Shown here: piece after piece, positions 2,363 through 45,182 of the stretch
Numbering within the stretch: the stretch's first letter is position 1
Layout: each line of letters opens with the position of its first letter
DNA from: Escherichia coli
GTDB taxonomy: Bacteria > Pseudomonadota > Gammaproteobacteria > Enterobacterales > Enterobacteriaceae
DNA: 64,000 bases
Assembly (NCBI RefSeq): GCF_003334385.1
Contig: NZ_QOWN01000004.1
Reading direction: 5' to 3' (one strand)
Made by a program: the position numbers and the translations under genes
Notes under the pieces: generated by a model
Databases searched by the model: none
What the model saw: the letters and a program-made list of their open reading frames with translations, nothing else
What the model was told of the DNA's origin: nothing

Positions 2363-3319
2363 ATGTGGAAACGCTTACTTGTAGTCTCTGCAGTCTCGGC
2401 AGCCATGTCGTCTATGGCGTTGGCCGCTCCATTAACCGTAGGATTTTCGCAGGTCGGATCGGAATCTGGCTGGCGCGCCGCAGAAACCAATGTGGCGAAA
2501 AGTGAGGCCGAAAAACGCGGAATTACGCTGAAAATTGCCGATGGTCAGCAAAAGCAGGAAAACCAGATTAAAGCGGTACGTTCCTTCGTCGCGCAAGGGG
2601 TGGATGCGATCTTTATCGCTCCGGTGGTTGCGACTGGTTGGGAACCGGTATTAAAAGAGGCGAAAGATGCCGAAATCCCGGTCTTCTTGCTCGATCGTTC
2701 TATTGATGTGAAAGACAAATCTCTCTATATGACCACCGTCACTGCCGACAACATTCTCGAAGGCAAGTTGATTGGTGACTGGCTGGTAAAAGAAGTGAAT
2801 GGCAAACCATGCAACGTGGTGGAGCTGCAGGGCACTGTTGGGGCCAGCGTCGCCATTGACCGTAAGAAAGGCTTTGCCGAAGCCATTAAGAATGCGCCAA
2901 ATATCAAAATTATCCGCTCGCAGTCAGGTGACTTCACCCGCAGTAAAGGCAAAGAAGTCATGGAGAGCTTTATCAAAGCGGAAAACAACGGCAAAAACAT
3001 CTGCATGGTTTACGCCCATAACGACGACATGGTGATTGGTGCAATTCAGGCAATTAAAGAAGCGGGCCTGAAACCAGGCAAAGATATTCTGACAGGTTCT
3101 ATCGACGGCGTACCGGATATCTACAAAGCGATGATTGATGGCGAAGCGAACGCCAGTGTTGAACTGACGCCGAATATGGCAGGTCCCGCCTTCGACGCGC
3201 TGGAGAAATACAAAAAAGACGGCACCATGCCTGAAAAGCTGACGCTGACCAAATCCACCCTTTATCTGCCTGATACCGCAAAAGAAGAGTTAGAGAAGAA
3301 GAAAAATATGGGGTATTGA
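2363..3319 (+). CDS. ytfQ: Galactofuranose ABC transporter periplasmic binding protein
   Basis: 318-aa ORF with N-terminal signal peptide; matches E. coli YtfQ; heads the ytfQRT-yjfF block. Confidence 0.9.
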   Translation: MWKRLLVVSAVSAAMSSMALAAPLTVGFSQVGSESGWRAAETNVAKSEAEKRGITLKIADGQQKQENQIKAVRSFVAQGVDAIFIAPVVATGWEPVLKEAKDAEIPVFLLDRSIDVKDKSLYMTTVTADNILEGKLIGDWLVKEVNGKPCNVVELQGTVGASVAIDRKKGFAEAIKNAPNIKIIRSQSGDFTRSKGKEVMESFIKAENNGKNICMVYAHNDDMVIGAIQAIKEAGLKPGKDILTGSIDGVPDIYKAMIDGEANASVELTPNMAGPAFDALEKYKKDGTMPEKLTLTKSTLYLPDTAKEELEKKKNMGY

Positions 3320-40819: not shown

Positions 40820-42322
40820 TTACCTTCTTCTCCCCCCCAGCAAACTCCCCAACATCCCGCGTACAATCTGATTCGTCACCTGGCGGGCGGCGCTTTTCGC
40901 CATTGTTTGCACCACACCATCTTTCTTACCGCCGCGTGGTCCGGTAGTGCCGAACAAAATATCCTTCAATCCACCAAGAATGCCGTCATCCACCGCTACC
41001 TCTTTCCCTTTCGCGGGGGGATTATTTTGCTGCTCGGTACTGGCCTGAAAGCCTTTTTGCAACATCTCATAGGCGGATTCCCGGTCCACCTCATCCTCGT
41101 ACTTGCCATACACCGGAGAGTGATTAATCAAGCCATTACGCTCATCTTCCGTCACCGGTCCCATCCGCGAACAAGGCGCAATCACCATCGCCCGTTCCAC
41201 CACTGAAGGACTTCCTTTCACATCAAGAAACGAGATTAACGCCTCGCCGGTCCCCAGTTCCTGGATTGCCTTTTCGGTATCAAATGCCGGATTGGCCCGC
41301 ATGGTTTGCGCCGCAGCTTTTACCGCTTTCTGATCTTTGGGCGTAAAAGCACGCAAAGCGTGTTGAACGCGATTACCGAGCTGCCCGAGCACATTATCCG
41401 GAATATCAGACGGGTTTTGCGAAACGAACCAGACGCCCACGCCTTTTGAGCGAATAAGCCGTATCACCTGCTCAATCTTATCCAGCAGTACCTGCGGTGC
41501 ATCGTTAAACAGCAGATGTGCCTCGTCGAAGAAAAACACCAGTTTTGGTTTCTCCAGATCGCCCGCTTCCGGCAATTGTTCATACAACTCTGAAAGCATC
41601 CACAGCAGGCTGGCGGCGTACAGTTTCGGCATCTGATAAAGCTTCTCGGCGCTGAGGATATTGATAACGCCTTTACCGTTGGTATCGGTGCGCATCCAGT
41701 CTTTGATATCCAGCATCGGCTCGCCAAAGAAGTGTGCTGCGCCTTGCTGTTACAGCGACAACAGTCCGCGCTGGATGGCACCAACCGATGCGCTACTGAT
41801 ATTACCGTACTGATTCTGGAAAGATTTGGCGTTATCGCCGATGTACTGGGTAATCGCCCGCAGATCTTTAAAGTCGAGCAGCAACAATCCCTGATCGTCC
41901 GCAATGCGGAAGATAATATTCAGCACGCCAGATTGCACATCGTTGAGATTCAACAGTCGTGCCAGCAACAGCGGCCCCAGATCCGAAACCGTCGCCCGCA
42001 CCGGATGGCCTTTCTCGCCAAAGATATCCCACACCACCACCGGATTGGCATGCGGTTGCCAGTCGTTGACGCCGATATTTTTCAGTCTTGCGAGCAGTTT
42101 TTCCGACGCCGTTCCTGCCTGCGCGATGCCGGTCAGATCGCCTTTCACATCGGCCATAAACACCGGAACACCGATTTCCGACAATGACTCTGCCAGTTTT
42201 TGCAACGTGACAGTTTTACCCGTCCCCGTTGCGCCAGTAATCAGCCCGTGACGGTTAGCCATTCCCGGCAATAAAAACAGTTCTGTGTCCGGCGTGCGGG
42301 CAATTAACAGGGGTTCGCTCAT
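40820..42322 (-). pseudogene. yjgR: yjgR (DUF853 P-loop NTPase) with an in-frame TAA at 41750-41752
   Basis: ORFs 41750-42370 and 40820-41716 share one frame and read through sensibly apart from the single TAA; Walker A GATGTGKT; combined length from MSEPLL start is 500 codons. Confidence 0.6.
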
Positions 42323-42451
42323 GAGATATCCTCCAGTTTCCTGCCTGGAGTATAGGCAACGGCTGCGCACTCTTCACCGCTAAATTCAGCAGATTGCGAG
42401 ATGCCTTCCAAAGAGATTTAAGTGCCGGGCGACAGGCACCCGGCAAAGGGA

Positions 42452-43471
42452 TCAGAAGTCGGCTTTCAGAACCACGCGGTAACGCGCCTTACCGTCGCGC
42501 ACATGCTTGATGGCATCGTTAATTTTCGACATCGGGAACAGTTCGGTGGTCGGCGCAACCTTGCTGCGGGCGGCAAAGCGCATCAGCTTACGCAACTCAT
42601 AAGGCGTGCCGGTAGCAGAGCCAGAGACACTGCGGTCGCCCGCAATTAACGTAAAGGCCGGAACAGACAGCGGCGTGAGAACCGCACCGACCGTATGGAA
42701 ATTACCGCCATACGTCAGCGCCTCAAAATAAGGCTGCCAGTCGAGGCTGACGTTGACGGTGTTGATAATGAGATCGAACTGCCCCGCAAGTGTTTTCAGT
42801 GCCTGCGGATCGCGGCTATTCACCACTTTATCGGCACCCATCGCCAGTACTTCCTGCTCTTTCGCCGGATTAGAACTAAAGGCCGTCACCTCGCATCCCA
42901 TTGCGTGCAGAAGTTTTATAGCGATATGCCCCAGCCCGCCAATACCAATTACCCCAACGCGGCTGGTAGCAGTGATATGGTGCATCAACAGTGGTTTAAA
43001 GACCGTGATACCGCCGCACAACAGCGGCCCGGCGGACTCGATATCAATATTTTCTGGCAGTGGAATCACCCATTGCCAGTCCGCACGCAACTTCTCGGCA
43101 AAGCCACCGCGATTCATAATTGTTGGTACCGCACCTTGCTCACAGTTGATCTGATTACCACTAATACAGGCGTCGCAGTGACCACAGCTACGCGCCGTCC
43201 AGCCAATCCCGACACGCTGACCGACCTGCAAACCTTTATCCTGTGCGGCGCTCCCGAGCGCCACTACGCGACCAATCACCTCATGCCCGGCAATCAGCGG
43301 ATATTGTGAAAATCCCCATTCATTGTCGATCATCGATAGATCGGAATGGCAGATCCCGCAATAATCCACCTGCACTTCAATATCTTGTGGCCTCAGCTCA
43401 CCGGGATCGTACTCATAAACTTCCAGTTCGCCGCCCGCTTCTTTTGCGGCATAGCTTCTTATCATCGACAT
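42452..43471 (-). CDS. ahr: NADPH-dependent aldehyde reductase Ahr (YjgB), zinc alcohol dehydrogenase family
   Basis: 339-aa protein from [22 protein letters not shown]...; zinc ligands CGICHSD and CGHCDAC. Confidence 0.9.
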
Positions 43472-43609
43472 TTTTTGGTCCTTCTCTGGTGTTGTCTGGG
43501 AAGTGTAGAGCATGGCAGGGCGGGGTGCCTGGAGTGTGACAAAGGTTACACATCGCTGTATGCAATGCTGAAAATTTCAGCACTTAGCGAGGTGCGAGCA
43601 AGCTGGCGC

Positions 43610-43666: not shown

Positions 43667-43751
43667 GCCGAAGTGGCGAAATCGGTAGACGCAGTTGATT
43701 CAAAATCAACCGTAGAAATACGTGCCGGTTCGAGTCCGGCCTTCGGCACCA
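43667..43751 (+). tRNA. leuX: tRNA-Leu (anticodon CAA)
   Basis: 85-nt sequence gccgaagtggcgaaatcggtagac...ggttcgagtccggccttcggcacca with anticodon loop ttgattCAAaatcaa and encoded CCA. Confidence 0.95.
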
Positions 43752-43937: not shown

Positions 43938-45182
43938 ATGGCTCTAACAGATATCAAAGTCAGAACAGCTAAGCCAACAGATAAGCAATACAAGTTAACT
44001 GATGGCAGTGGTATGCATCTTCTTGTCCACCCTAATGGTTCTAAGTACTGGCGTTTGCAGTACCGTTTTGACGGCAAGCAAAAGATGCTGGCTTTAGGTG
44101 TTTATCCTGACGTGTCGCTTGCCGATGCACGGACTCGCCGTGACGACGCTCGTAATTTGTTGGCAAACAACATCGACCCGGGAGACAAAAAGAAAAGTGA
44201 TAAAATTGAGCAAGAAGAAGCCCGCACTTTTGAACAACTCGCAGTTGAGTGGCATGCAACAAATAAAAAGTGGTCGGAAGAACATAGCAGGCGAGTACTG
44301 AAAAGCCTGGAGGATAATCTGTTTCCAGCTATTGGTAAGCGGAATATTGCGGATCTCAAAACCCGAGACCTGCTAGCCCCAATCAAAGCCGTTGAACTGT
44401 CAGGACGGCTTGAGGTTGCTTCACGATTACAACAGCGAACCACGGCAATTATGCGCTATGCCGTGCAGAGTGGTTTACTGGACTATAACCCCGCGCAGGA
44501 GATGGTTGGCGCTGTTGCTTCAAGTAACAGACAGCATCGACCTGCTCTTCAGTTGAAGCGAATCCCAGAACTATTACGGCGCATAGATAGTTATACCGGT
44601 AGACCTCTTACTAGACTTGCCGTCGAACTCACGCTCCTGGTATTCATTCGTTCAAGTGAACTACGCTTTGCTCGTTGGTCTGAGATCGATTTCGAAACAT
44701 CAATGTGGACAATACCTGCAGAGCGCGAAGCTATTGACGGAGTAAAGCATTCACAGCGTGGTTCAAAAATGCGTACGCCTCATCTGGTGCCGCTTTCTCA
44801 TCAAGCTTTAGCAATTCTTAAAGATGTTTACAAACTTAGTGGTGATCGCGATTTTGTTTTCATCGGCGATCATGACCATCGCAAACCGATGAGTGAAAAC
44901 ACGGTGAACAAGGCGCTGCGCGTTATGGGTTATGACACGAAGGTAGAGGTTTGTGGGCACGGTTTCAGGACAATGGCCTGTAGTTCATTGATCGAGTCTG
45001 GATTGTGGTCGAGGGATGCAGTGGAAAGGCAGATGAGCCATATGGAACGTAACTCAGTACGCGCAGCTTACATTCATAAGGCCGAACATCTTGATGAACG
45101 GCGACTGATGCTGCAGTGGTGGGCTGATTTTTTGGATGCGAATAGGGAAAGCGAAGTTAGCCCTTATGACTTTGGCAAATAG
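43938..45182 (+). CDS. P4-type tyrosine integrase
   Basis: 414-aa ORF with C-terminal tyrosine-recombinase motifs (HGFRTMACS, RAAYIHK); good RBS gggagggg; adjacent to the tRNA 3' end. Confidence 0.9.
   Translation: MALTDIKVRTAKPTDKQYKLTDGSGMHLLVHPNGSKYWRLQYRFDGKQKMLALGVYPDVSLADARTRRDDARNLLANNIDPGDKKKSDKIEQEEARTFEQLAVEWHATNKKWSEEHSRRVLKSLEDNLFPAIGKRNIADLKTRDLLAPIKAVELSGRLEVASRLQQRTTAIMRYAVQSGLLDYNPAQEMVGAVASSNRQHRPALQLKRIPELLRRIDSYTGRPLTRLAVELTLLVFIRSSELRFARWSEIDFETSMWTIPAEREAIDGVKHSQRGSKMRTPHLVPLSHQALAILKDVYKLSGDRDFVFIGDHDHRKPMSENTVNKALRVMGYDTKVEVCGHGFRTMACSSLIESGLWSRDAVERQMSHMERNSVRAAYIHKAEHLDERRLMLQWWADFLDANRESEVSPYDFGK

Follow-up and report, generated by a model that had tools for sequence, protein, structure and literature searches.

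The window analysed in this study comprises 64,000 nucleotides of Escherichia coli DNA (contig NZ_QOWN01000004.1), and its genes yjgR and ahr lie side by side, which raises the question of how this arrangement relates to that of E. coli K-12, where the idn genes are found. The idn or GntII cassette encodes the regulator IdnR, a transporter for L-idonate and 5-ketogluconate, a pair of dehydrogenases and a gluconate kinase that is the second one of the organism; the K-12 locus (idnK, idnDOTR) was reportedly treated by Bausch et al. in 1998 (J Bacteriol 180:3704, PMC107343). The initial annotation had read the adjacency as indicative of a strain without the GntII/idonate locus. The site is composed of the following features:

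40820 to 42322, minus strand: yjgR, HerA-like P-loop ATPase, 500 codons (translation and AR_0017 RefSeq annotation)
42323 to 42361, minus strand: the 39 bp just upstream of yjgR, with the conserved motif GTTGCCTATACTCCAGGCAGGA and a ribosome-binding site; homologous to K-12 and common to genomes with and without idn
42362 to 42451, no strand assigned: 90-bp segment specific to the unoccupied allele, without a K-12 counterpart
42423 to 42445, minus strand: G+C-rich hairpin (folds, and matches a terminator-like scan)
42452 to 43471, minus strand: ahr (formerly yjgB), NADPH-dependent aldehyde reductase, 339 amino acids (NF047908 and RefSeq)
43667 to 43751, plus strand: leuX, tRNA-Leu (Rfam tRNA match of 59 bits; RefSeq annotation)

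The start codon of yjgR (CAT on the plus strand, 42320 to 42322) and the stop codon of ahr (TCA on the plus strand, 42452 to 42454), both genes being located on the minus strand, delimit a spacer of exactly 129 bp from 42323 to 42451, and the distance given in the initial annotation was correct to the base. The hairpin quoted there, gccgggcgacaggcacccggc, is present in the spacer at 42424 to 42444. The spacer contains neither an open reading frame in the mechanical ORF list nor an Rfam family in the Rfam scan, whose only match in the neighbourhood is leuX. The identities of YjgR and Ahr are borne out by the translations of both reading frames and by the RefSeq annotation of the finished E. coli AR_0017 chromosome (NZ_CP024886.1), in which both genes are named and adjoin each other, and Ahr matches the NCBIfam equivalog NF047908.1 over its full length with 551.3 bits (cutoff 470). 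The mechanical ahr reading frame begins at an in-frame ATG at 43513 and is thereby 14 codons longer than the annotated gene, which starts at 43471, and it is the annotated start from which the family model is matched from residue 1. Across 14.8 kb the window differs from AR_0017 at five positions, and the yjgR-ahr junction is identical apart from one base.

A comparison with K-12 BW2952 documents the gene order yjgR, idnR, idnT, idnO, idnD, idnK, ahr, with idnR, idnT, idnO and idnD on the yjgR strand and idnK on the opposite one. The K-12 gene order given in the initial annotation is thus right, and in the K-12 reference the idn block does separate yjgR from ahr. The alignment against K-12 and other E. 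coli genomes that had been proposed as a check revealed that a block of 5,087 bp is missing from the window, and that the same junction is present in 3,213 genomes. The site has the same chromosomal position as the K-12 GntII locus, with yjgR and ahr on its two sides and leuX close by, and its flanking genes are orthologous with 96–97% nucleotide and 98.5–99% amino-acid identity (YjgR 99.0%, Ahr 98.5%), whereas the five idn genes are replaced in the window by 90 bp with the ahr hairpin and yjgR upstream sequence. In BLAST, homology to K-12 breaks at position 42361, 39 bp upstream of the yjgR ATG, and sets in again at 42452, precisely where the ahr stop codon lies. The intervening 90 bp (42362 to 42451) stand in for 5,087 bp of K-12 and have no counterpart there, which means that the difference is a replacement and not a clean indel. 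A homology of the 90 bp to the ends of the K-12 cassette was considered and rejected; the global alignment yielded matches of 8–10 nt alone, which we treated as chance.

Our survey of 5,426 complete E. coli genomes showed that the adjacency is the majority state of the species and not an unusual loss. Contiguous alignment of yjgR, spacer and ahr was obtained for 3,213 genomes (59%), and the 90-bp segment was found in 3,221 genomes at 3,222 places (median one per genome, highest two). Any part of the K-12 idn block is present in 2,055 of the 5,426 genomes and at least 80% of it in 2,038, and a contiguous yjgR-idn-ahr arrangement exists in 2,039. The near identity of the last two counts indicates that idn sits essentially only at the yjgR-ahr site, thus implying that a strain with an empty locus is GntII-negative; no idn copy was located on a plasmid in any of these genomes. 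Other states account for about 174 genomes, among them IS insertions within idn, a deletion of most of ahr in JKHS004 and the corrupted MLI104K2 assembly. The empty state is represented by O157:H7, O55:H7, O111:H8, O103:H2, O121 and O145 genomes, the idn state by K-12, BL21, HB101, HS and CFT073. The flank alleles of the window belong to a minority haplotype, with 73 of the 5,426 genomes being at least 99% identical over yjgR-ahr.

The proposal of a strain without the GntII/idonate locus is accordingly supported by the absence of the whole 5,087-bp block at this site. A tblastn search with the K-12 Idn proteins retrieved no idn homologue across the 64-kb window, only distant paralogues with 21–32% amino-acid identity; for the rest of the source genome we infer the absence of idn from the window alone. 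The 90 bp do not have the properties of a REP element or a mobile-element remnant, as they occupy a single place per genome, have no Rfam match and are not accompanied by repeats at the ends of the cassette.

Which of the two states is the older one was addressed with outgroups from a species-representative scan with YjgR. The matches listed were mostly distant Betaproteobacteria, and among them five close relatives (loci L003 to L007) were usable for synteny. The polarity rests on these few taxa, which comprise E. albertii, two Citrobacter and two Enterobacter-type genomes. In E. albertii and Citrobacter werkmanii ahr and yjgR are adjacent with gaps of 132 and 139 bp, respectively, while Citrobacter sp. 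FP75 harbors idnK-idnD-idnO-idnT-idnR in between. Two Enterobacter-type genomes carry a dihydroxyacetone-kinase-like gene of 548 or 568 amino acids on the opposite strand (L006, 8217 to 9863; L007, 8224 to 9930). Within Enterobacteriaceae, the yjgR-ahr site is thus found in three or more alternative versions that differ in content.

The conservation of the empty site extends over these genera. E. albertii shows about 95% conservation of the 90-bp segment and C. werkmanii retains its yjgR-proximal two thirds, while the adjoining 39 bp (42323 to 42361) are preserved in both genera and also in an Enterobacter-type genome. FP75 and K-12 share the same yjgR-side idn junction, and both leave the empty allele just upstream of GTTGCCTATACT. 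The arrangement GAATTTA-N20-GTTGCCTATACT is kept by the empty allele and by an Enterobacter-type genome whose gap is occupied by another gene, and its GAATTTA is missing from both idn-positive genomes compared. A deletion cannot create such a conserved sequence, and we take the empty site to be most likely the backbone and not the product of a fresh deletion. The G+C content of the idn cassette is 47.3% compared with 54–56% in lptF, lptG, yjgR and ahr, a difference that could also reflect the cassette's own composition, and target-site duplications or direct repeats longer than 5 nt were not detected at the cassette ends. With moderate confidence, the comparison suggests that the empty site represents the backbone state and idn an old insertion: a five-gene cassette of low G+C content would have been inserted long ago at yjgR-ahr, thereby replacing 90 bp of the backbone. 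The complete scenario appears fairly probable to us, namely that the window carries the unoccupied allele, that idn is an old insertion, that the two alleles have been swapped by recombination, and that the spacer combines an ahr terminator with the upstream region of yjgR.

Three other explanations have to be weighed against this scenario. A recent, lineage-specific deletion, in which illegitimate recombination removed idnR-idnK from an ancestor resembling K-12 and left a scar behind, would fit the presence of idn at exactly the same place in K-12 and 2,039 genomes as well as the short matches TCTCTTTG and CCGGCAAAG between the idnR-yjgR spacer of K-12 and the spacer of the window. These matches are no longer than chance would produce, however, and the 90 bp cannot be the scar of a deletion because they are missing from the idn-positive allele. 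Their occurrence in E. albertii, in C. werkmanii and across many lineages of E. coli (3,221 genomes), and a cassette devoid of flanking direct repeats, make a recent deletion very improbable. Even further from consideration is an artefact of the assembly or the window, i.e., a collapsed or mis-joined contig. The assembly of one complete genome, MLI104K2, is indeed corrupted and filled with homopolymers at precisely this position, but the window equals the finished AR_0017 chromosome here except for one base, and the junction recurs in the 3,213 independent complete genomes, which reduces the probability of an artefact practically to nil.

The alternative polarity deserves more attention. Under this explanation idn would be ancestral to the Escherichia-Citrobacter lineage, and the empty allele would have arisen once, long ago, when foreign or rearranged DNA took the place of idn, before it spread. 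The idn genes at the same junction in both genera are in agreement with such an origin, as is the about equally deep divergence of the cassette proteins (80–96%) and of the flanks (91–94%), and Salmonella Typhimurium has idnK as well (bioRxiv 10.64898/2026.04.07.716905). Two observations argue against it, namely that an Enterobacter-type genome with another gene at this site shares the part of the 90 bp that lies towards yjgR, and that the G+C content of the cassette looks foreign. We regard an ancestral idn locus as unlikely and favour the empty site as the backbone state.

The distribution of the two states raises the further question of how they came to be scattered, and the flanking genes provide a clue. 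Within E. coli, yjgR and ahr are diverse with pairwise identities of 93–98% compared with 97–99.4% for lptG, and the differences between the strains, 3–7% in yjgR and ahr, are mostly synonymous (loci L002 and L085 to L092 compared), with lptG differing by 1–3%. The yjgR gene of the window is closest to those of the idn-positive strain 2014C-4423 (98.4% identity) and the idn-negative FDN-11 (98.1%), and its identity to several idn-negative strains is 94–96%. Alleles of the flanking genes are not clustered according to the presence or absence of idn, and the yjgR differences are patchy along the gene. A linkage of ahr alleles to the idn state was considered at one stage and rejected; the underlying 91% identity to K-12 originated from the unrelated integrase region downstream, and ahr itself is 96.7% identical to K-12. 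The idn cassette is uniform, with 1,973 of its 2,055 copies being at least 99% identical to K-12. One example is the comparison of K-12 and CFT073, which differ by about 0.8% in idn, 5.9% in yjgR and 4.9% in ahr. Between the same two strains, the first 150–200 bp of yjgR differ by up to about 15%.

The tRNA gene leuX is an integration hotspot that renders its surroundings prone to recombination, and in E. coli only one other region rivals the phylogenetic incongruence reported around it (Touchon et al. 2009, PMC2617782). The locus investigated here shares with this hotspot the mosaic and unusually diverse core genes next to leuX together with variable inserts, which are the presence or absence of idn on one side of the tRNA gene and the Dpd island on the other. 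In contrast to the hotspot, idn is inserted at a site of its own, which is not a tRNA gene, lies about 1.2 kb away from leuX and has no integrase, no att-like repeats and few alternative occupants. On the far side, a tyrosine integrase gene (43938 to 45182) adjoins leuX and is followed by the island (window 43938 to 64000), which harbors dpdA, dpdB and dpdE to dpdJ as annotated in AR_0017; it serves 7-deazaguanine DNA modification and restriction, and the same island is present in strain JKHS004.

Both alleles seem to circulate within E. coli and within Citrobacter, and homologous recombination through yjgR and ahr, inside the leuX hotspot, would have moved the occupied and unoccupied states from one lineage to another. 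An exchange by recombination is suggested by the identity of the FP75 junction with that of K-12, by flank alleles that are not grouped by idn state and by the published hotspot, and allelic exchange through the flanking genes is the simplest mechanism for the mosaic pattern. A more far-reaching idea, which we put forward as tentative and rather doubtful, is that the yjgR-ahr site represents an ancient presence/absence polymorphism across Escherichia and Citrobacter, whose cassette is young or recently swept within E. coli. If so, short-tract recombination would have ended repeatedly almost at the edges of the cassette, perhaps driven by selection for or against the use of idonate and 5-ketogluconate in the gut.

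The spacer of the unoccupied allele would represent a working intergenic region, in which the ahr-proximal hairpin would terminate ahr and the yjgR-proximal part would hold a promoter and leader. On the ahr-sense (minus-strand) RNA the hairpin reads UGCCGGGUG-CCUGU-CGCCCGGCA from 42445 down to 42423; it starts 7 nt after the ahr stop codon, and its stem of 9 bp encloses a loop of 5 nt. The minimum free energy is -17.3 kcal/mol (z-score -2.6), and 3 of 200 shuffled sequences fold as well. Positions 42430 and 42438 form a G-U pair in the minus-strand RNA and a C-A mismatch on the plus strand, which makes the stem better paired in the sense of ahr. The stem is identical in five of six idn-negative E. 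coli, with CRE1493 showing a 1-nt deletion at the boundary of loop and stem. In E. albertii, C. werkmanii, Enterobacter sp. Ag1 and Citrobacter FP75, the end of ahr is likewise followed closely by a hairpin, although one of different sequence. Together with the match in the terminator-like scan, the structure is probably an intrinsic terminator of ahr. The tail that follows, CUUAAAUCUCUUU, is U-rich and interrupted, so the terminator is probably a weak one, and termination at this hairpin may be weak or factor-assisted.

The remaining ~100 bp of the spacer are conserved across genera and probably contain the putative promoter and leader of yjgR. A sigma-70 promoter scan produced a single match, on the wrong strand and inside the yjgR start region, and no convincing -35 element was found in a manual search upstream of TATACT, so that we assign the promoter tentatively. 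The DNA of idn-positive strains differs beyond 39 bp upstream of yjgR, and the regulation of this gene may hence differ between the alleles.

Judged from its gene content, the strain should have no use of L-idonate or 5-ketogluconate by the GntII route and no second gluconate kinase, and its gluconate use would rely on the main GntI system. The variable idn content of E. coli has already been published. The lineages ST131 H30 and H22 lack idnK (PMC5369007), idnDOTRK is present in 83% of the genomes with pks and in about 31% of those without it (PMC8545132), and genes for L-idonate catabolism are enriched in HUS-associated STEC (PMC4216125). These idn-negative lineages, i.e., ST131 H30/H22 and most pks-negative genomes, exhibit the same presence/absence polymorphism with nothing of substance being different, and the window is a representative of a known and common accessory-gene polymorphism. 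Its idn content is a useful lineage marker that is statistically linked to pks-positive ExPEC and HUS-associated STEC (PMC8545132, PMC4216125). The current study supplies the exact breakpoints, 42361 and 42452, of this common polymorphism, and its importance beyond bookkeeping is slight.

In JKHS004, ahr is cut down to a pseudogene fragment of 236 bp (L084, 10621 to 10856) beside intact yjgR and leuX genes, and the deletion took most of ahr and a part of the 90-bp segment. In MLI104K2 (NZ_CP116925.1; L083, 8440 to 9300) the gap between yjgR and ahr is filled by about 900 bp of homopolymer-rich sequence, in which pieces of idnR and idnT occur and the hairpin of the empty site is fused to the idnK end of K-12. 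Its interpretation as a decayed intermediate with idnR and idnT fragments was rejected, because the assembly is poor and this stretch of it chimeric and full of homopolymers; it looks like the result of mis-polishing with mixed reads and not like biology. A "zinc-binding dehydrogenase" on the 120-kb plasmid NZ_CP172870.1 (83522 to 83920) matches about 395 bp of ahr with 95–98% identity and is a fragment of the chromosomal gene captured by the plasmid.

A last observation concerns yjgR of the window. Codon 190 is an in-frame TAA (41750 to 41752, minus strand) in place of Glu190, which cuts the gene into pieces of 189 and 298 codons, and it is caused by the single base 41752 (A here, C in AR_0017). 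Further single-base differences from AR_0017 in the 14.8 kb compared are located at positions 36007, 38923, 46589 and 49239. None of the 5,426 complete E. coli genomes contains an exact match to the 121 bp around the TAA, which is indicative of either a private mutation or a sequence error.
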